From Eledone cirrhosa (taxonomy: Eukaryota), in assembly GCA_964016885.1 (NCBI GenBank), contig OZ024746.1, forward strand, positions 54,188,001 through 54,252,000: DNA of 64,000 bases. The letters are read 5' to 3'. Below the pieces are notes generated by a model, which saw only the letters and a program-made list of their open reading frames with translations, did not search any database and was not told where the DNA came from. Shown one piece after another: positions 6,277 to 57,300 of the stretch. Position numbers and translations under genes: made by a program. Position 1 is the first letter of the stretch; the number at the start of each line of letters is the position of its first letter.

Positions 6277-7230
6277 AAGGTTTCTGATTTTGGCAAAAGC
6301 CAACCAAATTAGGGAGGGGTAAATCGATTAAATTAATTCCAGTATGTTTCTGGTATTTTATTTTATCGACCCCGTATGGATGAAAGGCAAATCTAATATC
6401 GGTGGGATTTGAACTTCAAATATTAACGGCCGTAGCTCCATGCCACGAAGCATTGTGTCCGATGCTCTACCGTTATTGCCAATCCACCACCATAATAAAA
6501 ATAGTTTCTTGTTTAAGCACAAGGCCAACAATTTGGGAGTAGAAAGTCGATTAAATCGACTCCAGTACATTATTGGTACCTTATTTTATTGACACCGTAA
6601 GGATGAAAAGCAAAGTTGACCTCGGTGGGATTTGAACTCAGAGCGTAAAGGGGCGTAACCCTATGCCATAAAACGTTGTTCGGCGTTCTAATGAAATTTC
6701 CTATCCACTGCCCTCTTAATGATAATAATTGTTTCTACTTTTGGCACATGGCCAGCAATTACCCCAGTCCATTACTGGTACTTTATTTTATCGACCCCGT
6801 AAGGATGAAAGGCAAAGTTAACCTCGACGAGATTTGAACTCAGACTGTAAAGGGACGTAACTATGCTGGAAAGCATGGCGTCCGACCCTCTACAGATACT
6901 ACCAATCCACGCATCTTAATAATAATATTTGTTTCTACTTTTGTCATAAGGCCAGCAATTTTTCAGTGTATTACTGGTACTTTATTTTATCGTCCCCATA
7001 AGGATGAAAGGCAAAGTTAACCTCGGCGGGATTTGAACTCATGATAATAATAATTGTTTCTACTTTAGGCACAAGGCCAGCAATTACCCAGTGCATTACT
7101 GGTACTTTATTTTATCGACCCCGTAGGGATGAAAGGCAAAGTCAACCTCGGCGGGATTTGAACTCAGATCGTAAAGGGACGTAACTATGCTGGAAAGCAT
7201 GGCGTCCGACCCTCTACCGATACTGCCAAA
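6277..7230 (-). mobile_element. cluster of five SINE family-1 copies in tandem
   Basis: The core TTTTATCGACCCCGTAAGGATGAAAGGCAAAGTTAACCTCGGCGGGATTTGAACTCAGA repeats at ~6360, 6585, 6787, 6985 and 7110. tRNA-like head with B-box GTTCAAATCC on minus. Confidence 0.9.
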
Positions 7231-9320: not shown

Positions 9321-12300
9321 ATGCTCCCCGAGAAAAGAACTTTCATTGGTCGATTATCTAATGATGCATGTGGGTCTAAGCTAAGGCGTCTCACCGAAGA
9401 TGTAAATGCGACTGCGATCAGGCTCTCACAGAATGCTGTGCCGACGGCTGCTGCAAGAGCGGAGGAGGATGACAGTCGGCGTGAACTTCGATGGAACAAA
9501 GATGTTGCCGCGACTGCTGCTGCACGCGCTCGAGAGTATGGAAGACGACGTACCGTTCGACGAAGGAGGGACGCGGCTGCAACATCCGCTGCTCGCGCTC
9601 GAGAGGATGGAAGACGACGCGCCGTTCGACGAAGCAGGGACACCGCTGCCACTGCTGCTGCACGAAATGCTGAAACCATAGAGGAACGACGTGGTCGACT
9701 TCTGCAAAGTGAACAGCGGCGATTATCGTTACGTGGCATTTCTAGGTGGCAATTCACGATGGTTGTTGAAGGCCTTTAACTACGACCCCTCCTCCGACTA
9801 CGCCGTCCATGCAGATATTCAAATTGGGGAAATGACCTCTAATTGGCAGTTTTGTCGTACGAAAAAGTGGCCAGGGGAGAGAGATGGAATGTGCTGTTCA
9901 AACGGTATAGCTAGACTACCACCTATTCACGACCCTCCGGAGACATTGCAACTCCTTTTGACAGACACGACGGAGGAATCAGCAAAGCTTCTGCGTAATA
10001 TCCGCCGCTACAATTCCGTATTTCAGATGACATCCTTCGGAGCAAAGTTTTCCCCGGAACGTGGGTTTATGCCAACTTTCAAGGTCCAGAGGCAGATCTA
10101 CCACTTGATTGGGTCTATTCAGACTTTGGCAGAAAAGGATCCTCAATTTCTTCAGTTATACTTCGTTGGAAACTATCAAGAGCAGGCAGAGATGCGAAAC
10201 TCTATTTCGTCCGAAACTAACATTGAAACCATAATAAAACTTCAAGAAATGCTTCATGATAAAAACAGCTATGTTCGCAGTGTCAAGTACGCTTTGGAAA
10301 GAGCCACCGACACAAATTTAGTGTGGTCATACATGCTGACCGAAGGCCTTCTTGAGAACACGCTGGTCGGTTCAACGCACCAACATGTAATGAGATTGCT
10401 GCGGTTATTTGTGCTGAACAGCACTGAGACAGCACATTACAGCGTATCAATGAGACACACAGGTCCTATGATGAACTCTAGTATCCATTGCTATTTGTCA
10501 ACGGCGAGGACGGATACCATTTCGGCATTCCTCAACATTCAGCAGGCAAGGGTGAGGCACATCTTAGCAAAACTGTCACTTGCATGGATTTCTACGCTTT
10601 CCGATTTATGGTAAGGGACGATTCATTCAACCATCTACACCAGGGGTTGGCAACCTTTTGGAGAGAGAGGGCCAAACAGCTATGCAGTGTCATGGAGGAG
10701 GGCCATGTTATTAAATATGTAAATAAATGTTCTGGAGGTTTAAAGAAAAACAAGGAATTTAATATAATTTTATTTTAACAAGGCCCCTTATTTTACTGCA
10801 GGAATAACAAAAAAAAAAAAGAAAAAAAATACAAACACATTCAACAAAAAAAAGAAGCAAATTCCTTATTTTTCTGCAGGAATAACAGAAAAACATCTAC
10901 TATCACAATCAACAAAAAAAAGAAAAGCAAATTCCTTGCTACAAACGAAATACAGTTAGAAATGGTAAATGATTTAATGAGACACTTGTTTCTGCTTATT
11001 GTGCGATAACTTCTCCACATCAGGTGAAATATTTGTCGATGACAGGAGCAAAACATCATCCAGGTGGTCGTCACGCAACCTTGTTCTTAAAAAGTTGTTC
11101 ACAAGGATATGTACTTCCAAATAATGATATCATCAGTTTCACATTAGTCAAGATGTTTTTATATTTTCCGCTTGGATATATATATTTCTTGTAGAAGCAA
11201 ACACATTTTCCGAAGTGCTCAATGAAAAAATAACTAAGTGTCTAGCCATCGTTAAAAGTTCGGCACTCCAAATCCACTTTTCTTTTCTTAGCTACCATGG
11301 GCTTGTTTTTGTTCAAACAAAAAAGATTTATGGAAAGGAAAAAGAACAAAAAGTATAATAATCAGAATGAAGAAATATAAAACAGTGAAAACAAATGTAA
11401 ATGCAAATACAGTAATGCGATAAAATATGATAATTGTGAATAAATTATATAAAACCAGGTTTCTAACGACGTTGTTAGATCAGGGTTGCCATTTGTTTTT
11501 TTAAACCACTTTTGGCCTAATTCTAATAATAATAATTCATACAGTTTATCACAAATAATTAAATAAACTTTATTATCGAATAAAGATACCTATTGTATAG
11601 TTGTTATACCACCAGACAACAAACTCAAATGAAAATACTCTGGGGAGGAGGGAACGAAGTAATTTTTCCAAGTTTACCTTGTGCCGGGGTCAGGCAAACG
11701 AAGACAACAATAATTCACAAGTGATTTTATTGAATGACAATATGGGTATAAAAGCGAGTCATGCGAACCGTAAGGAAGTATACCTTCCAATCGTTGACGA
11801 AAATGTATACTTCCAGCCAACATTTGTGTTTGTTGACTGGAACAAAAACACATACATGAAATCACAGGAAATAATAATACAGGTGAAATAATGCTTGGCG
11901 GAAAGCTCAGAAAAAGATGGATAAGAGGAAATAATAATAAATGGAAAATATAATAAGGTTACAAAGGTATCTGTAAATATATACGGTATTAGCTGCGATT
12001 TGTGATGGACATCAGGTCGGCACAACCTTGAAGTGAACTACTGTATCTGTATTCGATACTAATTAGATAATTAGTGTCCAGTGTAAGATGGCAGGTCGGA
12101 CAAAAATCACTCAAGGGCCGGATGTGGCCCGCGGGCCCGGGGTTGCCGAGCCCTGATCTACACCGTTCTCGGGACCTTTTCCAACAATTTGCTGTTGATA
12201 TGGCCGTTAAAATGGAGTCCGAGAGATTATGGTTCATTAAATTAAATCAAAAGAAAATTCGATCTGAATGCTACATTCATCTACGCGATGGAATTAACAA

Positions 12301-13510
12301 CGACGTATCTCCAGACAATTTAGGGCAAGTGTGTATTTTGCCTTCAACGTTGACAGGTGGACTCCGATACATGCACGAGAGGACTCAGGATAACTTACGT
12401 ACGACATTATGGGCACCCCTACCTTTACATAACGTTTACATGCAATCCCAAGTGGAAGGAGATTACAAACGAACTGTTCCACGGTGAAGCGCCAAGACAC
12501 AGGCATGATCTCATAGCAAGAGTGTTTCGCTTGAAATTATCCAAATTAATGGATTTATTAAAGAAAGGACAGGTTTTGGAGCCTGTCAAGTGCGACATGT
12601 ACACGGTTGAATGGCAGAAACGAGGGCTGCCGCATGCCCATATCTTGATTTGGTTGGTTACAAAAATCAGTTCAAAGTACATCGACAAATTCATTTCTGC
12701 CGAACTACCTGATCCGTCGATTGACAAGGACCTCTTCTCTATAGTCACATCAAACATGGTCCATAGTCCTTGCGGACATGGACTCAATATGAAGTCCCCG
12801 TGCATACACAACGGAAAGTGTGCAAAACGATATCCCAGGCCGTTTTTACAGGAAACACAGACTGGCGGTGACGGAAACTACACTCACTGCCTGGTGGCAG
12901 GACGGCCCATTCTGCCTTCAGGCTTCCTCTCAACGTGGCATCATCTGAGACACCTACGTGCAACATCAGCAAGTCTTCCGGAAAAGCACTGGTGTTAAAG
13001 CGCTGACTACTAATTGTTTGGGACGAATGCACAATGGCCCGCAAGGCGGCTTTCGAGGCATTAGACCGGTCACTCAGAGACATCTGGGACTGTCAAGAAC
13101 CAATGAGAGGTGGCACTTTCCTGTTATCTGGGGACTTCCGACAGACTCTTTCCAACGGCACGCGTCTGGTCGTCCAAAAGGCGATGCCTCATGCTATTGA
13201 GGCAACAATACTTACATTATGTGGTAAGGGGGATACTGTCTTCATACCAAGGATACCTCTCATTCCATTCGGAAAAGACATTCCCTTCACATTCAGAAGG
13301 CTGCAATTCCCTCTCCAGCTCAGTTTCACCATGTCGATTAACAAATCACAGGGTCAGACGCTGACGGTCGTAGGGCTTAATTTAGAAGAACCGTGCTTCT
13401 CCCATGGTCAACTATATGTTGGCTGCTCTCTAGTGGGAAGCCGACATAACCTATTTGCTTTTGAAACTCACGAGAAAACCCAAAATATAGTTTATAAGGA
13501 AGTTTTGTAG
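9321..13510 (+). pseudogene. Helitron Rep/helicase pseudogene (frameshifted, internally deleted, interrupted by hAT)
   Basis: N-terminal R/A-rich repeats; Zn-finger-like FC..KKWPGE..GMCCSNG; YNSVFQMTSFG; LFQQFAVD; YITFTCNP; HUH motif VEWQKRGLPHAHIL; PIF1-type motifs GRTAHSAF, IVWDECTM, SGDFRQ, SINKSQGQTL, FSHGQLYV; ends NIVYKEVL*. Confidence 0.93.
10641..12155 (-). mobile_element. non-autonomous hAT (Charlie/Buster-like) DNA transposon nested in the Helitron
   Basis: TIRs CAGGGGTTGGCAACC and GGTTGCCGAGCCCTG (13/15 match). 8-bp TSD ATCTACAC at 10633-10640 and 12156-12163. Minus-strand transposase C-terminal remnant MISLFGSTYPCEQLF...NISPDVEKLSHNKQKQVSH* at ~10974-11133. Confidence 0.93.
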
Positions 13511-32838: not shown

Positions 32839-35423
32839 CTATAAGCATTGTCATATGACCGAGAGTGTTTCGTCGGTCTTCAATCTTTTTTTTCTACTTT
32901 TGAAATATATAATGGCATTTTATTTTGTTGTTGTCTGTATTTGTTAACATTTCTATAATATCCAAGATAATACTTTACAGTTGTTGCTAAGGAATATAGA
33001 CAGACGAGGATAATTTTCCAAAATGTAGGGACTTTAATTTGCCGTAAATATTCACCTCTGATTTCGTAGATAGCATCAAAATTTCTTTATTCGATTTATG
33101 CTTCATAATTGTTTCTACTTTTGGCACTAGGGCAGCAATTACCCCAGTGCATGTGGATAATATGCATTCAGTTTTTCAATTAAATGAAATATCTGCTCTT
33201 TGAATGATTATGTATATGTCGGAGGATTCCATAGCAGACCTCCCAACATCTAAAAACCCAAACAGAGAGTACCATGCAAAAAAGTGCCTCGAAACGGGGA
33301 GAAATGAGGCAAATGGGGAGATTTTACATAATGATTTCTAGTATAGGCACAAGGCCAGTAATTTGGAGAGAGGGGAAAGTCGATTAAATCGACCCTAGTA
33401 CGTTACTGGTGCTTTATTTTATCAACACCGTAAGGATGAAAGGCAAAGTTAACCTCTCTTGGGAAAGTCTCACTAAGGATATATTCTAACTGTTTAAATT
33501 CTTTACTTTGTCAGCAAACGGTAGATTTACTGATTGACAGTATTTTGACGTTGATGGTTAACGTTACTGCGACATGTAGCTGTTGAGGTAATGTTTGTTG
33601 TGACACATAGTGTTAAATTTGCTGCCGGCATGGCTATTTCAAACACAATTTGTGTAGTGATGTTGTTTGTTGCTGATGGTCAGACGACCATAAAGTGTAA
33701 TAACATAGCAGCCTGTTGCGACACGTGCTGAGTGAATGTCTGATATAGGAGAATGCTCACTTAGTGTTGTTATTTGTAAGGGTTTCACACATTCACTATT
33801 GTTTTGAAGAAATGTTTGTTATTTTTACGTTCGGCAAACGTTGCAGGTGAGCGTAATATTTTGGTTGTGAAATAAGTTAGCTCTGGGTGGGGTTCGTCCT
33901 AGCGTAGCTTCATTCTGTTATATAACGGACAGAAGGATCTATTTTACCATTTTATAACAATTAAATTGGTCTTTATTGAATTTATGAAGGCGCATGACTT
34001 AGTGGTTAGAGCATTGGGCTTGCAATCGAAAGTTTGTGAGTTCGATTCTCGGACTCACAATGCGGCTTTGCAGATGATCAATGCAAATTGACAATGGAAA
34101 GGTGCTCCCACTTGAGTTAGAAGAGAACTATTGACCTTCAGGAGAAGCAGCGACGGAGAGATTCGAGATTATTGAGTTCGTAACTCCTAGAAAAATGCGA
34201 TTCATAGTTTCGGTTCCTTCTATAACTAACATGATTCTGTTTACGTATATCATTGTTTGTTTTTCTTTTGTTCTTCACTATTGTTGTTGATGTTAAGGTT
34301 GGGTTTGTTATGTTCCGCCATGTAGTTTGTAGTAATTCCTTGTAAGGTGAATTCAATTTTAGATGGATCTCTCAAGGGGTTAGAATAAAAGGTGTCTTCA
34401 ACGAATGTCATCAGAAGAGTGTCCAATTATTCAACAAAGTCAGTGATTATGGCATCATTGTTGGAGATAGTATTCATCTTAAATTGCATGAATAGGCACC
34501 ATGTCATATATGTAACAGCTCGCGTAGAAAATGATATATATATGTATGTATGTTTTAATGTATGCATATATGTGTGAATGTATGTATGTATGAATCTATG
34601 AATGTATACATGCGCAATATGACGCAAAAACGCAGTATGCAAAACCACAATGGTCGAATATATTAATAATTATAATATCGTTTCAGAGAAATTAATTCAT
34701 GTGAATAAACCTATCACATTTGCCACCACCTTCTTCCACCAATATAAACAGAACCACCACCATGTACCACTGCCACAATCACTACCACCACTACAACCAA
34801 GAAATGCCCGTGCACCACCAAGACCAACAGGAAATAATCATGTATATCCACAACGAGAAGATATCCAGCCACGGTTGATGGCCTTCATCATATGATAATG
34901 TTGAGAATTTACGAGTTACGGATTAATGGGAAATGAAATGGCGAAGAGGAAAGTAAGCGATTAATGTTGTGGGCGATGAGGACAGACACGTGGATTCATT
35001 ATATATGCAGCACAGTTACGTCCCTTTACGGACTGAGTTCAAATCCCGCTGAGGTTAACTTTGCCTTTCATCCTTACGGGGTCGATAAAATAAAGTACCA
35101 GTAATACACTGGGATAATTGCTGGCCTTGTGCCAAAAAGTAGAAACAATTATATATATATAACAAATGGTTTATCGCTCCAATGTCTGCAGTTCTGTTGA
35201 CATGCCAACACAATAGTAAGAATGACAGGGTCATTCTACTGAGATAGGTTTAAAGAGGTTGTTTGCATAATTGCAAACGAATCGAATATTATTATTAATA
35301 TTCGAAAAGCTCAGATTACATATATATAAACATGTGTGTGTGTACACACAAATTGAAACGCTATACAATTTGTTTTTCCATATATCTCGTTGAGAAACAA
35401 CTAGTATTATTTACATGTATATA

Positions 35424-35822
35424 AGGGCGGTGGATTGGCAGTATCGGTAGAGGGTCGGACGCCATGCTTTGACGCATAGAGTTACGGCCCTTGCCATTCT
35501 GAGTTCAAATCCCGCCGAGGTTAACTTTGCCTTTCATCCTTACGAGGTCGATAAAATAATGTACCAGTAATATACTGGGTTATTGCTGGCCTTGTACCAA
35601 AAGTAGGAACAATTATTTACATGTATATAAGGGCGGTGGATTGGCAGTATTGGTAGAGGGTCGGACGCCATGCTTTTCAGGATAGAGTTACGCCCTTATA
35701 CGATCTGAGCTCAAATCCCGCCGAGGTTAACTTTGCTTTTCATCCTTACGAGGTCGATAAAATAGAGCACCAGTTATGCACTGGGATAATTGCTGTCCTT
35801 GTGCCTAAAGTAGAAACAATTA
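35424..35822 (+). mobile_element. two tandem SINE family-1 copies
   Basis: Heads at 35424 and 35630. ATTATTTACATGTATATAA precedes each copy, and a variant follows the second. Confidence 0.92.
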
Positions 35823-36052
35823 TTTACATATATATATAGAACGACAAATAGTAAAAGTACTTACCTAAAGAAAGAAATAAGTCAATAATGCATAAAGTTC
35901 ACATGTACGGCCGTTTCATGAACATTCGAAACATTCTAGAACATGATTCTTAACACCGATTTAATGATTGGGCTCAATTAGGCAGTATTGCCTTGATTCT
36001 TTCTTTAGATGAGGACATTTATTATTTGCAGTTCTATATATGAATATGTACA

Positions 36053-48560: not shown

Positions 48561-48779
48561 GTGCTGAAACATATCTGTCATTTAGCAAGCATCTGTATGT
48601 GACAGCTGATATGACTTTGGGCTATGCGGAGAAAAATTATCTGGACTGCCTGCTGTGAATGAATCATTAGACAACCTGTAGCTATTAAGGGACAGGAAAT
48701 AATGTCTGTACATGTTCTTGTCTTATAAGTGGGCTGGTGCAGTGTGAAATTCGAACAGCAAAAGATTTATGGTGGCGCG

Positions 48780-48980
48780 ATCAGGCGCATCCCAAACAAA
48801 CCTCGTCTGAAAGACGAGATGCTAAATCCTTATACACCGAAACGCGCAGTGTATGACATACCCGGAGTTATTGCGCCACTGTGGTCAAAAGATGGAAACG
48901 ACCGGTTGCCTAAGCTCGACAAAATTAAGATAAGATGGAACGATCATTATAACAACATCTTAAACCATGGTTTAACATCC
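48780..48980 (+). mobile_element. old RTE-like LINE, left part (continues at 56820-57300)
   Basis: PLWSKDG...KIKIRWNDHYNNILN, the linker that precedes the RT domain. Confidence 0.6.

Positions 48981-48991: not shown

Positions 48992-49067
<76 letters not shown>
48988..49067. repeat. (TATC)n microsatellite 5' of element A
   Basis: Direct reading; further tracts at 53007-53048 and 56349-56465. Confidence 0.97.
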
Positions 49068-49068
<1 letters not shown>

Positions 49069-49217
49069 ACGATGGACACATGTGCTGAGCTCGCTCGGTA
49101 AGTTTCGTTTAAATTTATCCGGAAATTGTGAACTGCAAACTTTCATTTTTGTACCATTTTGTAGAGGGACTGCCAGGTCAAATTTTGATCTGGTCGGTCT
49201 CTCAAAATATTCTGCGC

Positions 49218-50251
49218 CATACTCACAGATTCCCCCTGCCACTGTCACAGCAGCAGATGTAAAAGGCAGAGGTCAGCCAGAGGAAGAATTGTCTTCACCT
49301 GTTGACCGACCACTAGATGTAGCCACAACTATACAAGAAACTGAAAACAACAACAACAACAACGACAACAACAGCAACAATAAAGACAACAAAAACAACA
49401 ACAACACAAACGTCACAAGTATCCACACACCAAACGAGAAAGACAACAACAACAACAAAGATGAAAGCAACTCAAACGACGAGAAACAAAACAATACAAA
49501 CACCAACAACGAAAACAAAATATCTTTTGCACAAACGGCTAAATTATCAGTCACGTATGTGCTTGAAGATATTTCAAAAGCAAAAGAAATGCTGGAAAAA
49601 GCCAAGAAATATGTATCTTTTGGCGAAAACGGTTCGTTTTCTATAAATTCACCTCCAGAACTAAAAAAACAGACGGAATTACGAACTGTCGTATTCCGTA
49701 CAATTTTAAATAAAACAAAAAAACCAGCACAACCATCTCAAGCTGAAATTCAGTTAGTACTGAAAGAAGCGATGAGAGACATCACTTTCATACAAAAGGA
49801 TAAACTCTATGGGAGTTTATCCATATTGATGAAAGACGAATTGGCGGCGAAAAAATACTCTGTGTCGCCAATTCGTTCCACACACTACACCTTCTTCCCC
49901 ACCTACATGGGTAAAAAACCCCAGAGAATATGGATAACCACCATTACTAACCGGTTTCCTAAATTTAGACGAGGACAACCTCATTTCAATAGGGAAGGCA
50001 TCCGGCGACGCGTTCAGTGGAACGAGCATAGAAGTTCTGACACAAATAAGGCCAGAACGTATCGCCCAAATCCCCGAGCGCGTCATGCTGGATGACCGTA
50101 CCCACCTCAACATTATTGTGGAGGGTAGGCGTCCCTCCTGTTACCTCTGTGGCAATAGAGGTCACCTGAGGGCTGCCTGTCCCCAGCTCACACAGAAAAA
50201 AACACTGCTACCAACACCAACACCACCCCAACAACAACAACAAAAACAACC

Positions 50252-50285
<34 letters not shown>

Positions 50286-51024
50286 AAACCAACAACACCA
50301 CCACCACCACCACAACAACAACAAAAACAACAACAAACACGTGAAAAAACAACACAGAATACTGTCCCACCCAATCCCTCCCCACCGAAAACAAATACAG
50401 AAACACACACACCGCAAACACTACCAGAAAACATACCCCTCCCACCCAACAAGGAAGACGAACCCTTTCGTCGCAAGACGAAAAAGATCCCTTCCAACAA
50501 GTAAAAAGAAAGAAGAGGAGACGCACCACAGACACACATGTTAACTTTAACCCTCCCCAAGAGAACACAAACTACACACAAACCACCCCTCCCTGTCACA
50601 CAACACTAACTGCTACACAAAAAAAAGACCTTACAATATACATACATGAACACAGACAACAAAGAACTACTGAAAACAATTTCAGCAAACCCTTCGGTCC
50701 AAACTGAAGGGCCTAACTTTATAACTGCTGTGGGACTACCTCATTTAAAAATGATTAAAGTCCCAATGAACTTTTACAAAACACTGAAGATAAATTTCAC
50801 GGACGACGTGCCCCCCCCCCCCCTGCGCCAAACCAATCAACCGCGTCCTCCTAAAAAAAATCACCCCCAACCCCACCCCACCCCACCCAGACACCCACTC
50901 AACCACAAACACCCCAACCACACAACACACTGATGCCCCTTCACTTCCACAACCCCCCCCCAACAATGCATCCCCAACCAGCATGGAAATTGAGCGGCCC
51001 GTTTCTCGGGACGCAGAGAGGTAA
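49218..51024 (+). pseudogene. ORF1 (gag-like) of copy A, frameshifted and missing its start
   Basis: Pieces homologous to copy B ORF1; CYLCGNRGHLRAAC zinc knuckle; a 115-bp deletion relative to B removes the ATG; ends MEIERPVSRDAER*. Confidence 0.85.
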
Positions 51025-51048
51025 GTGCCTTTTCTCCTTACCACCAAC

Positions 51049-52740
51049 ATGGCTGTGCTAAGAGTAGGGTGTCTAAATGCGCGTGGCCTGGGCTCATCTT
51101 GGAAGCAAGCAATGCTTCTAAATGACCTCAGGTCACAATCTATAAATGTGATGGTTATCTGCGAGGCCCGGATCAGCAGCATGCGGCAGCTAGCCCCCAC
51201 CTTTGACGACTTTGAGATGCACGCATCTCTCTGTCAGCTCGGAGGTGGGGGTGGGGTTGTCGTTCTGCTGCAAAAACATCTGGGCCTTGCAACACAGATA
51301 GTTCACTTGGACCCAGGGGGTCGACTGGTGGTGCTGGACCTTGGCAGTGGTGAAGGTAGAGCTTTTAGGCTGGTAGCCGCATATGCCCCTTTTGGGACAG
51401 AGCGGCCCGACTTTTTCCAGCGTCTGGAGTCTTTTCTAGGGATGTCCCGTTCCCTGCTTTTAGTGGGGGACTGGAATGGTATCCTGGATGCACGTTGGGA
51501 CTATGCAGGGGCATGTCCCGATAGAGAGGGGTGCAACAGCCTCAAGGGGTTACTCGGCCGATTTGACCTGGCCGATAGATTTCGACTAGATTTTCCGACG
51601 GTGCCAACCTGGTCTTGGTCAAATCGCAGCGGATCATCTAGGTCGTACCTAGATAGGTTTTTAGTTAGAAATAAGGACAGGGACATTTTAAGTTGTCCAG
51701 AAATGCTCATGGTTGGCTATTCAGACCACAAGTTGGTGACCTGCATGGTCAACCTTGATAGAACGCATAGACAGGGCCCCGGTTACTGGAAGCTCAACTT
51801 GTCCTTGCCGGCAAGCAGAGCTTACAGGGATCAGATTAGTACGTTAGTTAAGGAACGGTTGACTGGAGCGATCATCAACAGTAGGTGGTGGGTATCTCTA
51901 AAGAGAGAGATTAGAGTAGTCTCGATAGAATTTAGTAAGGTTCTAGCTGCGGATAGGAATAGGAAGGAAAGGGAGCTAATAGATAGAGTAAAGACCGAGA
52001 AAAGACCGAGAAAACTGGGCGCCTGGCACACTGAGTGTGCCCAGGCGCTCACCGCCCTCTGGCAGGCGGATCCGGTTGTCAGTGGAGACTCCACCGCAAC
52101 ATTCTATAGAGGGCTGGTACGCAGCAGATGCGACGACGCCCTCGGAGAAGCCCTAGACACGGAGGAGGACAAACTGGCCAGCCTGTTCGGTAGGACATTC
52201 AGCCCGGGACCTATGGACAACTTCCAGAAGTCCCTGGCCTGGCAGTGCTACCGAGGGGCTCTACCCGTTCGAGAAAAGCTCTACAGACACGGCCGCCCGG
52301 GTAGGGACCCCGCCAAAAAGATCTGTCCCAGATGCGTGTGCGACGAGGAAACCGTTGCACACGCATTGGTACACTGCTCGGGCGTAGCCGATCTGTGGGG
52401 CTATGTCGAACAACTGCTGTCAAGGGTGGGACCGATCCGGTTGACCACCGAGTCTATTGTAACGATCAAGCCGCCTCCCCCCTTCAAAGATGAAGGAGAG
52501 GCGGTGTTTCTGTGCGTAATAGCCATGGTGAAAGAAGTTGTATGGTGGACGCGTCTGAAAGGACTGAGGTCAAGCACCTTTCTCTCAGGCCAACAACTGG
52601 TCCGTTTCTTCCGATATCATTTCGGAAGAAGGATCAGGATGGAGAGAGAGGTGCTCCACCCCAGTCGTTTTTATGAAAGGTGGGTGAAAGTGGCGAGAAT
52701 GGCCCGTGTGAATGGGCCTTCTCTTTACATAAGCCTGTAG
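51049..52740 (+). CDS. RT-less ORF2: APE-like endonuclease fused in frame to the C-terminal zf-RVT-like domain (563 aa)
   Basis: APE catalytic motifs LNARGL, ICEAR, AYAP, VGDWN, SYLDRF and YSDH, then GPGYWKLN; C-terminal CPRC..EETVAHALVHC. No QGxPLSP or YADD; the ORF is uninterrupted. Confidence 0.88.
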   Translation: MAVLRVGCLNARGLGSSWKQAMLLNDLRSQSINVMVICEARISSMRQLAPTFDDFEMHASLCQLGGGGGVVVLLQKHLGLATQIVHLDPGGRLVVLDLGSGEGRAFRLVAAYAPFGTERPDFFQRLESFLGMSRSLLLVGDWNGILDARWDYAGACPDREGCNSLKGLLGRFDLADRFRLDFPTVPTWSWSNRSGSSRSYLDRFLVRNKDRDILSCPEMLMVGYSDHKLVTCMVNLDRTHRQGPGYWKLNLSLPASRAYRDQISTLVKERLTGAIINSRWWVSLKREIRVVSIEFSKVLAADRNRKERELIDRVKTEKRPRKLGAWHTECAQALTALWQADPVVSGDSTATFYRGLVRSRCDDALGEALDTEEDKLASLFGRTFSPGPMDNFQKSLAWQCYRGALPVREKLYRHGRPGRDPAKKICPRCVCDEETVAHALVHCSGVADLWGYVEQLLSRVGPIRLTTESIVTIKPPPPFKDEGEAVFLCVIAMVKEVVWWTRLKGLRSSTFLSGQQLVRFFRYHFGRRIRMEREVLHPSRFYERWVKVARMARVNGPSLYISL

Positions 52741-53267
52741 GTGGAAAAGAGGAAGGAACGAGGGCACACACCCTCTCTGTGCTCCTGAGGAGAAGGGTTT
52801 CACACTTTTTTCGGGGGGGGGGGGTGCGACCCCCCAAGGCGCCTCCTCTCTATTGAGGATTTTGTTATAAATTTTTTTTTTGTTATATTTTATTTTATTT
52901 TTATATCTTGTTATTGCCTCCTCCTTATTGAGGACGCCTTTTTGTGTAAACTCCCCCCTTTGTACTTGTCCCACTTTTGATGCCCTGGTGGCAAATAAAA
53001 GAAACATATCTATCTATCTATCTGTCTATCTATCTATCTATCTATCTCTACGATGGACACACGTGCTGATCTCGCTCGGTAAGTTTCGTTTAAATTTATC
53101 TGGAAATTGTGAACTGTAAACTTTCATTTTCGTACCATTCTGTAGAGGGACTGCCAGGTCAAATTTTGATCTGGTCAGTCTCTCAAAACATTCTACGCCT
53201 TTAGGCGAAATAGTGTTGTAAACATTTTATCTTTCGAAAAATTTCGAAAAATCCTATTTTGAGAAAA

Positions 53268-55179
53268 ATGGCTGAAGCATCTTCACCAACAATCAAAGAA
53301 AGAAAAGGGAAGTCATACTCACAGCTTCCCCCTGCCACTGTCACAGCAGCAGATGCCAAAGGCAGAGGTCAGCCAGAGGAAGAATTTTCTTCACCTGTTG
53401 ACCGACAACTTGATGTAGCCACAGCTATACAAGAAACTGAAAAAAACAACAACGACAACAACAGCAACAATAAAGACAACAAAAACAACAACAACACAAA
53501 CGTCACATATGTAGTAAACACTTCCTTTCGTAAAGAAAGTGAATTTCACACAACAAAAAATGAAAATAACAGCCCACAACAGACACCAAAAAATACAGAA
53601 AATGAAAAAATTGAAAACACATCCAACAATACCAATCAAAAGGAAAAAAATGTCAACACAAACACCAAAGAAAATACAAAGAGTGACAACAACAGCAACA
53701 TTTCTTTTGCTGATACCGTAAAAAAAATGGAAATATTTCAACTTTTGGATTTAACCAACGCGAAACAAAAGTTGGAAGATGCTAAACAATATGTGACTTT
53801 TGGACCCAATGGGTCATTTAGCATAAATTCACCACAAGAACTAAGGAGAGAAAATGCCCTGAACACAGTGGTTTTCAGGACAATCTCAAATGCATCAAAA
53901 ATACCAGCTCAACTATCTCACAGTGAGATTGAGCTAGTATTAAGGAACCACATGGATAACATTTTATTTATTCAGAAAGCCAAACTTTTCGGCAGCATCT
54001 CGGTGCTAATGAAAAACAACATAACAGCACAAAAATATTCCATCGCGCCCATTGTGTCCACCCATTTTACATTTTTCCCTACATACATGGGAAAAAGAAC
54101 GCAAAAAATAAAAATTACATGTATAAGACCCAACGTAGATATTTGGTGGATACTTTATGGCCTAATTGACCTTGAAGAAGACACTTTGATCTCAGTAGGA
54201 AAATCCTCCAGAGATATATTTAGTGGGACTAGCATCGAAATTCTGGTGCAGATGAGCCCAGAACGTATAATGAAAATCCCACAGACAGTACCTATGGATG
54301 GACAGACCTACATAAACATTTCGGTTGAGGGTAGGCGGTCCGCATGTTACCACTGCGCAAGCAGAGGTCACCTAAGGGCTGCCTGTCCTCAATTGACAAA
54401 AAAACCCCCACTTTTACCAACACCACAAATAACAACACAATCACCACCACCACCACCACGACAACAAGAAAAATCAACAGAGAACCATATTCCACCCAAC
54501 TCCTCCCCACCCAAAACAAATACAAAAACACACACAGACACTACAGAATCCCAAAACATACCCCTACCCATCAACACGGATGAGGAACCCCTATCGACGG
54601 CACCCAGCGGCGATGAGGAGGAACCCTTCCAACCCGTGAAAAGAATAAAAAGAAAGAACCGCATGAACAAAAACGAAACAAACACACAAACACCAGCACA
54701 AACAGCACAACAATCACAAACAAAAGTTCCCCCTCCCGAAAACAAAACACCCACAACAAAGAGAAAACACGTGCAGCAACCACAGACAAAAACAAACACA
54801 ACACAGGAAAAATACACATACACTTACATAAACGAAGAAAATAGAACACTGATGGAGACCATCAGAAACAACCCTTTGGTCAAAACCGAAGGGAAAACTT
54901 TGGATAGCTCCAACAAAAACAAAAAAATGAACCTAAAACTGATCAGGGTCCCTATAGGAACTTATAGATCCCTAAAAGACACATTTGTAGAGGACGTGGG
55001 GAATTCCTGCGTGAAACCAATCAACCGCGTCCTCTACAAAGGCCCCCCCCCCACCCAAGTCATCCCCACCCAAGTCATCCCCCCACCAGACAAACACCCC
55101 AAGTCCCCCCCCCAGACCCCCCCACCCCCCCACCCTCATGGAAATTGTGCAGCCCGATACCCGGGACGCAGAGAGGTAA
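53268..55179 (+). CDS. ORF1 gag-like nucleic-acid-binding protein of copy B
   Basis: Long open frame from MAEASSP with the CCHC knuckle CYHCASRGHLRAAC. By homology to copy A, the natural end is probably MEIVQPDTRDAER* (TAA 55177-55179), with a 1-nt shift in a poly-C tract; the track extends it to 55280. Confidence 0.82.
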
Positions 55180-55203
55180 GTGCCTTTTCTCTTCACCACC
55201 AAC

Positions 55204-56104
55204 ATGGCTATGCTAAGAGTAGGCTGTTTAAATACGCGTGGCCTGGGCTCAACTTGGAAGCAAGCAATGCTTCTAAATGACCTCAGGTCACAACGTATAG
55301 ATGTGATGGTTATTTGCGAGGCCCGGATCAGCAACGTGCGACAGCTGGCCCCCACCTTTGATGACTTTGAGATACACGCATCTCTCTGTCAGTCCAGAGG
55401 TGGGAGTGGGGTTGTCGTTCTGCTGCAAAAACATCTGGGTCTCGCAACACAGATGCTACAATTGGACCCGGAGGGTCGACTAGTGGTTCTGGACCTTGGC
55501 AGTGGTGAAGGCGGAGCGTTTAGGTTGGTAGCCGCCTATGGCCAACCTGTTCGGTAGGACATTCAGCCCGGGACCCATGGATAACTTCCAGAGGTCCCTG
55601 GCTTGGCAGTGCTACAGAAGGGCTCTGCCCGTTCGAGAAAGGCTCTACAGACACGGGCGCCCGGGTAGGGACCCCTCGAAAAAGATCTGTCCCAGATGCG
55701 TGTGCGACGAGGAAACCGTTGCACACGCATTGGTACACTGCTCGGGCATTGCTGATCTGTGGGGCTATGTCGAACAACTGCTGTCAAGGGTGGGACCGAT
55801 CCGGTTGACCACCGAGTCTATTGTAACGATCAAGCCGCCTCCCCTCTTCAAAAACGAAGGAGAGGCGGTGTTTCTGTGCGTAATAGCCATGGCGAAAGAT
55901 GTTGTATGGTGGACGCGCCTGAAAGGACTGAGGTCAGACACCTTTCTCTCTGGCCAACAACTGGTCCGTTTCTTCCGATATCATTTCGGAAGAAGGATCA
56001 GGATGGAGAGAAAGGTGCTGCACCCCAGCCGTTTTTATGAAAGATGGGTGAAAGTGGCGAGAATGGCCCGTGTGAATGGGCCTTCACTCTACATCAGACT
56101 ATAG
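55204..56104 (+). pseudogene. ORF2 remnant of copy B (N-terminal part of APE joined out of frame to the C-terminal zinc-knuckle domain)
   Basis: MAMLRVGCLNTRGL...LVAAY joined at ~55540 to ANLFGRTFSPG...CPRC..H..C. Confidence 0.88.
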
Positions 56105-56348
56105 GTGAGGAAGATGAAAGACCAAGGGAGCACCCCTTCTCTGTGCTCCTGAGGAATAGGGTTGCACACTTTTTTCGGGGGTGTGTGCGACCCCCCAAGG
56201 CGCCTCCTCTCTCTATTGATTAATTTATTTTTTTATTTTATTTTATATTTTGTTATTGCCTCCTCCTTATTGAGGACGCCTTGTTTTGTAAACTCCCCCC
56301 ATTGTACTTGTCCCACTTTTGATGCCCTGGTGGCAAATAAAAGAAACA

Positions 56349-56447
<99 letters not shown>

Positions 56448-56605
56448 TTACCTATCTATCTATCTCTATATATATAGTAATAAGAATAAATGTGAAGACT
56501 AAAATCCGAAGAGGGCTCGATAGGGATAATATATATATCAAAATATATAAAACCATAGAGCAAATTCTTTGCTTAAACTTTAATCTGTAATTTTAATAAA
56601 TATCT

Positions 56606-56819: not shown

Positions 56820-57300
56820 CTCGTCATTAACTAATTGACAGTCCACCCACATTAAAATAGATTAAGGTAGCAGTCAAACAAATGAACATTGCCAAAACAT
56901 CTGGAAGATACTGTATAGGGGCTGAAATAGTTAAGAAAAGAGGTGCTAAATTCAACAATCTTTTGCATAACATATACTACCAAGTGTGGTTGAAGGATTC
57001 GGTTCCACAGGAGTGGCGTGGAGTCATTCTTGACTCACGCTTCAAGACGAGTCACAAAGATGTTGTGACAACTACCATGGGATCTCTTTACTATCAGTTC
57101 TTGACACAGGGCTGGTTTGATATCATTCTCGTCCCCCTCTTCTAGACAAGTCACACAGATTTTGTGACAACTACCATGGGATCTCTTTATTATCAGTTCT
57201 TGGTATAATCGTTGTCTGGGTTCATGTTAATCATCTACTGAGTCATGTATTACTTAACATTCTGCTGGAATCTCAGTGTGGTTTCTGTAATGAACAGTAG
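56820..57300 (+). mobile_element. old RTE-like LINE, right part
   Basis: PPTL..IKVAVKQMNIAKTSG..CIGAEIVK...VW....VPQEW, followed by a duplicated DNYHGISLLSV-like segment and ESQCGF. Confidence 0.7.

Follow-up and report, generated by a model that had tools for sequence, protein, structure and literature searches.

Introduction

HAL1 and Drosophila HeT-A are multicopy families without reverse transcriptase (RT), each sharing one derived structure. In the present study, we analysed 64,000 nucleotides of Eledone cirrhosa DNA (the window; C6:54188001-54252000 of the 3.0-Gb genome), in which two RT-less retroelements, A and B, are embedded in a (TATC)n microsatellite. The pair is like HAL1 and HeT-A in the absence of RT, in the retention of open reading frame 1 (ORF1; in B) and in the head-to-tail arrangement. 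However, HAL1 and HeT-A are multicopy, whereas the RT-less structures of A, B and a further copy, L223, were each single-copy here. Our results suggested that A and B are very probably copies of an RT-encoding family, from which RT was removed by private one-off deletions after insertion.

The RT-encoding parent family was compared with described Tx1 elements. Tx1 is a subgroup of L1, and ORF1s that contain RRM or zf-CCHC are linked to Tx1 in the excerpted text of PMC5203782. In that of PMC4494074, Tx1-clade targets include (TC)n (Kibi), (TTC)n (Koshi) and crocodilian (TTCC)n/(TTTC)n, specificity is called when more than 20% of flanks carry the target, and tandem SINEU-3 copies are interpreted as having inserted sequentially rather than as forming a subfamily. 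In Octopus vulgaris, 13 recently active L1-Tx1 families were described, and the word "target" is absent from the main text as excerpted (PMC13282606). The parent family is like Kibi, Koshi and the crocodilian Tx1 elements of PMC4494074 in having two ORFs, an ORF2 with apurinic/apyrimidinic-like endonuclease (APE) and RT, and a strong preference for a single microsatellite. However, its target is (TATC)n and its host is the octopod E. cirrhosa; the likeness was drawn from features. SINEU-3 is like A and B in that tandem copies lie around a target duplication (PMC4494074, excerpt). However, SINEU-3 copies are short interspersed nuclear elements (SINEs) in a Mariner target, whereas A and B are long interspersed nuclear elements (LINEs) that belong to different subfamilies and lie in a microsatellite.

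Results

Elements A and B lack RT

Elements A and B were arranged head to tail, and Tandem Repeats Finder (TRF) placed (TATC)n before, between and after them. Both started with TACGATGGACAC and ended with AATAAAAGAAACA. The alignment of A with B gave 94% identity over the first 151 bp and 90.5% over the last ~830 bp (the 3' parts), and ~65% in the ORF1 cores. A had lost ~1.75 kb at the junction 51990/52001 and B ~2.53 kb, and both losses spanned all of RT. RVT_1 gave no Pfam match in the ORF2 of A or in the ORFs of B. A preliminary description of the locus had reported two elements of 3.9 and 3.3 kb (3939 and 3300 bp here) with shared termini, bounded by (TATC)n, without RT and with different ORF2 deletions. 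All of this was borne out by TRF, Pfam and the alignments.

The deletion junctions are unique

A 25-mer over each junction of A and B had one match in the genome at up to one mismatch, which was the window itself. In contrast, the undeleted 24-mer at the right breakpoint of B, used as a control, had 4324 matches at one mismatch. The junction copy count had been named beforehand as the test that could refute an RT-less family, and it spoke against one. BLAST with 401 and 281 bp over the junctions gave no other match spanning both sides among the 40 scored of 3273 and 4737 candidates. The junction of L223 was also unique genome-wide; among the RT-less copies, this search covered A, B and L223. 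The L223 deletion was near that of A but not identical (ORF2 nt 914-2678 vs 942-2696).

Sixteen deletion junctions were aligned, and the lengths of microhomology were read by eye. Eleven of the 16 were insert-free, and eight of these 11 had at least 3 bp of microhomology, compared with 5.7% for random deletions. The other five carried inserts, four of which copied nearby sequence (by eye). Microhomology together with templated inserts is the trace that microhomology-mediated end joining (by polymerase theta) leaves behind. A 5'-truncated copy, L052 (C18:18716828-18717028), started in (TATC)n within 1-2 bp of the point of A's right breakpoint. This coincidence may be due to chance or to a hot spot.

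A and B nest among different RT-bearing copies

All six copies at 97-98% identity, L148, L140 and L142 for A and L145, L143 and L150 for B, carried the RT region. A tree was built from a 540-nt C-terminal segment with 45 of 105 rows, comprising five RT-less copies, eight chosen near relatives and 32 random copies; the row named L114 was a neighbouring copy and not the RT-less element. A fell inside a group with RT-bearing copies (support 99), and B fell in another group. A clade of A and B was rejected by the approximately unbiased (AU) test (p-AU 1.2e-6). The RT-less label required five changes for the five rows, indicating that the RT-less copies were polyphyletic. The ORF1s of A and B were diverged because each element nests in a different RT-bearing subfamily. 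A simple tandem duplication of one element, already rejected in the preliminary description, was ruled out by the separate subfamilies and the 65% likeness of the ORF1s. A chimera of halves from different subfamilies was also ruled out for A, as L140, L142 and L148 were 97-98% alike to both halves.

The RT-bearing parent family

The 3' part of the elements matched many loci in the genome. The RT motif AYADD(V/M) was found in long ORFs of 14 of the 20 longer stretches examined. The parent family was ~5.7-5.9 kb long (L040 is a natural copy of 5688 bp), with a putative CCHC knuckle in ORF1 and APE, RT and a zinc finger in ORF2. In the copy L047, ORF2 was open over 1145 aa and matched Exo_endo_phos, RVT_1 (E 4e-25) and zf-RVT in Pfam. 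The genome held ~1050 parent 5' ends. Among 118 sampled 5'-bearing copies, ORF2 was open over at least 1100 aa in 13, and both ORFs were open in eight. The autonomous relative that the preliminary description had postulated was present.

The order of APE, RT and C-terminal zinc finger behind an ORF1, by which L1-group elements are recognised, was found in the parent family, which belongs to the L1 group. The best solved relative of the L047 ORF2 was human LINE-1 ORF2p (PDB 8sxt), with E 3e-47 over APE and RT, while R2 gave E 2e-21 or weaker. Unlike human LINE-1, the parent family had an ORF1 with a putative CCHC knuckle and not Transposase_22, no poly(A) tail and a sequence-specific site. The L1/Tx1-group identity proposed earlier agreed with these data and with the Pfam domain set. 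Membership of the Tx1 clade is likely. No named Tx1 protein was among the homologue matches of the family, nearly all of which were unnamed, and the closest named homologue of the RT was an Argonauta hians protein (66%). Relatives of ORF2 (P0002-P0043) of ~1150 aa and ~40% identity were also observed in other assemblies, some in clusters of hundreds.

Several subfamilies (L152-L231, L113-L151) had a common start of the 5' untranslated region (UTR), ORF1s that were 65-70% alike and different 3' ends. In the B type, a distinct ORF1 was combined with an ORF2 resembling that of L047, which suggests ORF1 swapping.

Most sampled copies keep RT, and the deletions differ from copy to copy

Two samples of parent-family copies were surveyed. 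Sample 1 consisted of the 39 copies nearest to the 5' UTR of A, from which one duplicate of L113 was dropped (n = 38). In this sample, 28 copies were colinear in ORF2, five had another ORF2 deletion, one was RT-less (L114) and four were without the 3' part. Sample 2 followed position order and took 80 copies from the first 100 5' UTR matches listed (exact matches only), namely 74 of the 81 on C1, the other seven being already in sample 1, and the first six of the 19 on C2. Here, 58 copies were colinear, 10 had another ORF2 deletion, eight were without ORF2 or its 3' part, and four (L185, L187, L223 and the borderline L172) kept less than half of the RT core. Seventy-two of the 80 reached the ORF2 C-terminus or 3' end, and 68 of these 72 kept most of RT. 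Every ORF2 deletion junction in the samples was different.

Counts of 23-mers at one mismatch gave 1,052 for the 5' UTR, 2,598 for the APE start and 17,268 for the RT region; these counts were rough because the RT 23-mer also caught sister families. The patterns differed in breadth: in the 86 colinear copies, the 5' UTR pattern was found in 86, the APE-start pattern in 65, the RT pattern in 79 and the 23-base undeleted-breakpoint version in 50. Since the RT count was far above the other two, there was no excess of RT-less copies.

The (TATC)n target and the head-to-tail habit

At least two TATC units were found in the 40 bp upstream of 71/80 and 30/38 copies, and downstream in 30/33. The background was 71/5000 for 40-mers drawn at random from the window, with the elements excluded, and 12/456 for distal flank 40-mers. 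None of the sampled copies had the GATA polarity at its flanks. Thus, the parent family is associated with (TATC)n, in a single polarity. This preference (71/80) was well above the 20%-of-flanks rule in the excerpted PMC4494074. The preliminary description had written of GATA-microsatellite targeting; the tabulated flanks upheld the targeting, in the TATC orientation only. Like Kibi and Koshi, the parent is an L1/Tx1-group LINE that targets a microsatellite. By analogy with the Tx1 elements of PMC4494074 (excerpt), the specificity would be set by the APE.

In 31 of the 80 copies, a family 3' end was located no more than 300 bp upstream; for 18 of the 38, the distance was at most 150 bp. As with A and B, adjoining 5'-complete copies were often from different subfamilies (L221, L228, L178, L139/L185). 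Two copies, L021 (C1423) and L125, were inserted inside other family copies at single TATC/CATC sites. At such a site, L021 carried about three TATC units at its 3' end, which hints at a short tail made by the element. A six-copy array at C1 4.22-4.26 Mb (L232-L236) was considered as sequential insertions, and this was ruled out. Its 5'-truncated sister copies had the same flank and were 99.7-100% alike over 1200 bp, and the array arose by recent tandem duplication of a segment or is satellite-like.

The parent family is large and recently active, with a strict one-way (TATC)n preference, and piles up head to tail. (TATC)n was not among the Tx1 targets listed in the excerpted PMC4494074, and the family would offer a further APE specificity. 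No (TATC)n-specific retrotransposon family was found among the literature titles and abstract openings listed, although Repbase, Dfam or the supplements of PMC13282606 may hold it. With its many near-identical copies, the parent family provides a convenient archive of the spectrum of deletions in this genome.

Origin of the RT-less pair

The following course of events would account for the locus. The parent APE would nick the microsatellite, and target-primed reverse transcription would start there. Each insertion would leave TATC on both sides, and later copies would therefore land beside earlier ones. Because their subfamilies differ, A and B would have inserted one after the other. Each would then have lost RT in a one-off event, likely microhomology-mediated end joining, and neither would have spread. 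Ordinary decay of the genome, rather than a new non-autonomous family, is the likely explanation of the RT-less pair; the by-product, of modest value, is the parent family with its (TATC)n preference.

Several observations weigh against private deletion after insertion. In A, the deletion preserves the reading frame and the complete APE, and its ends lie close to those of the L223 deletion. The microhomology fits post-insertion repair and a template jump of RT during insertion alike. The samples comprised 118 of ~1050 5' ends, and the source listing favoured exact matches. If losses were independent, 0.09-0.16 adjacent RT-less pairs would be expected genome-wide (upper bounds 1.8-2.4), an expectation built on 3-4 of 72 copies being RT-less and four of 80 having a 5'-complete downstream neighbour. 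The double RT loss is thus uncommon by chance, and the pair was singled out for its oddity. In addition, no record among those listed from four public runs with the same species label bridged junction A. No RNA data set was among those listed as containing the sequence.

Alternatively, RT could have jumped forward on its template at a short microhomology during insertion, each copy being RT-less from the outset through a single event; the parent family would be unchanged, and there would be no derived family. In agreement with such a jump, 12 of the 16 junctions carried microhomology or templated inserts, both termini and the TATC flanks were retained, and L223 and A nearly shared their breakpoints. 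However, A carries additional private deletions (115, 26 and 6 bp), and many sampled copies were without 3' parts or other pieces, both of which fit the general decay of resident copies. Neither junction A nor junction B had GT-AG, making splicing unlikely as a cause of the deletions. We consider a template jump unlikely in this pair. That RT was lost privately, whether after insertion or by such a jump, is highly probable. A further extension would make RT-less copies with both ends a regular by-product of template jumps in the family, with a hot spot at the breakpoints of A and L223; in other individuals, some of them, such as B with its nearly complete ORF1 or A with its in-frame APE-zinc-finger fusion, might be transcribed and mobilised in trans, as a HAL1-like family at birth within (TATC)n arrays. 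This appears very improbable.

The preliminary description had suggested a protein-coding, RT-less, (TATC)n-targeting non-autonomous family mobilised in trans. An autonomous RT-bearing partner does exist, both of its termini are kept in A and B, the APE-zinc-finger ORF of A (563 aa) and the ORF1 of B (670 aa) are open, and the double RT loss is uncommon by chance. However, the junctions of A, B and L223 were single-copy, no dispersed copies shared these deleted structures, the RT-less copies were polyphyletic, the 23-mer counts showed no RT-less excess, and the ORF1 of A and the APE of B were broken. This proposal was therefore not supported, and such a family is extremely improbable. An assembly error that wrongly joined different copies of a repeat with high copy number was also weighed. 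The missing bridge at junction A is in its favour, as are 269 raw reads that stop at 51990 and continue with undeleted sequence; public contigs and restriction-site-associated DNA (RAD) reads, among the records listed, did the same. However, where copies number in the thousands, contigs and RAD reads can readily miss a junction that is present once, and similar private deletions occurred at many other loci. A homologous mis-join would also connect matching positions, whereas the positions joined here are 1.7-2.5 kb apart and a 10-bp templated insert is present. Because the four runs need not come from the assembled individual and none listed bridges junction A, the junctions rest on the assembly alone. 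An assembly artefact nevertheless seems very improbable, and private deletion after insertion is the explanation that we retain.

Coding content of A and B

The features of the locus are collected in Table 1. The ORF2 of A matched Exo_endo_phos and zf-RVT, without RT, and was 582 aa shorter than an intact ORF2. The 115-bp deletion in A was flagged in none of the 34 complete near copies screened. The endonuclease of B was cut after ~112 codons and joined out of frame. The zf-CCHC matches in both ORF1s were weak (E 0.0009 and 0.009, below the Pfam cut-off), and neither Transposase_22 nor RRM gave a Pfam match there. The retained ORFs were thus not intact, the ORF1 of B also being shifted near its end. 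The term "protein-coding" in the preliminary description was partly true: the ORF2 of A and the ORF1 of B are open, but the ORF1 of A is startless and frameshifted and the endonuclease of B is cut out of frame.

Table 1. Features of elements A and B and of their microsatellite flanks (window positions)
Feature	Position	Strand	Basis or remark
(TCTA/TATC)n tract, 5' target flank	48992..49068	+	TRF 19.2 copies, 100%
Element A, 3939 bp, internally deleted A-type subfamily copy, both termini kept	49068..53006	+	97.1-97.7% identity to RT-bearing L148, L140, L142
A: 115-bp deletion removing the ORF1 start codon	49217..49218	+	Alignment of A/B and near copies
A: ORF1 remains, one putative CCHC knuckle	49218..51024	+	Frame shifted near 49943 (26-bp deletion) and near 50462 and 50618 (1-bp indels)
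A: ORF2, 563 aa, in-frame fusion of the whole APE with the C-terminal zf-RVT part	51049..52740	+	Pfam, ORF calls
A: deletion junction with AAAGACCGAGA as 11-bp direct repeat (templated insert of 10 bp)	51990..52011	+	Unique in genome
(TATC)n spacer separating A from B	53007..53047	+	TRF 10.2 copies, 94%
Element B, 3300 bp, internally deleted B-type subfamily copy, both termini kept	53049..56348	+	97.1-97.5% identity to RT-bearing L145, L143, L150
B: ORF1, 670 aa, open	53268..55280	+	Frame shift near 55054-55127, runs beyond the usual stop
B: ORF2 stub, 117 aa, endonuclease cut upstream of its GDWN and SDH motifs	55204..55557	+	ORF and Pfam
B: deletion junction, 4-5 bp microhomology (T)GGCC, out of frame	55539..55543	+	Unique in genome
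B: C-terminal ORF2 remnant with zf-RVT, in a different frame from the stub	55541..56104	+	ORF and Pfam
(TATC)n tract, 3' flank	56349..56465	+	TRF 29.2 copies, 96%

Other features of the window

GTAAGT, the splice-donor consensus, occurred at 49098-49103, 51021-51026 and 55176-55181. It sits in the 5' UTR, where it is kept across subfamilies, and over the ORF1 stop, where a pyrimidine run comes next, immediately ahead of the ORF2 ATG. Spliced or ORF2-specific transcripts are possible from these sites.

Short ORFs at 48729-48965 and 56861-57145, on either side of the (TATC)n block, had no Pfam or useful PDB match. We take them to resemble decayed pieces of an RTE-type LINE, so that an older element may enclose the microsatellite. 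Helitron remains were present at 12354-12998 (Helitron_like_N, E 2e-29 in Pfam), while 9682-10614, also entered as Helitron remains, had no Pfam match. Tandem SINE-like units with periods of 125-206 bp lay at 6562-7166 and 35406-35836, and are presumably octopus-like from their look.

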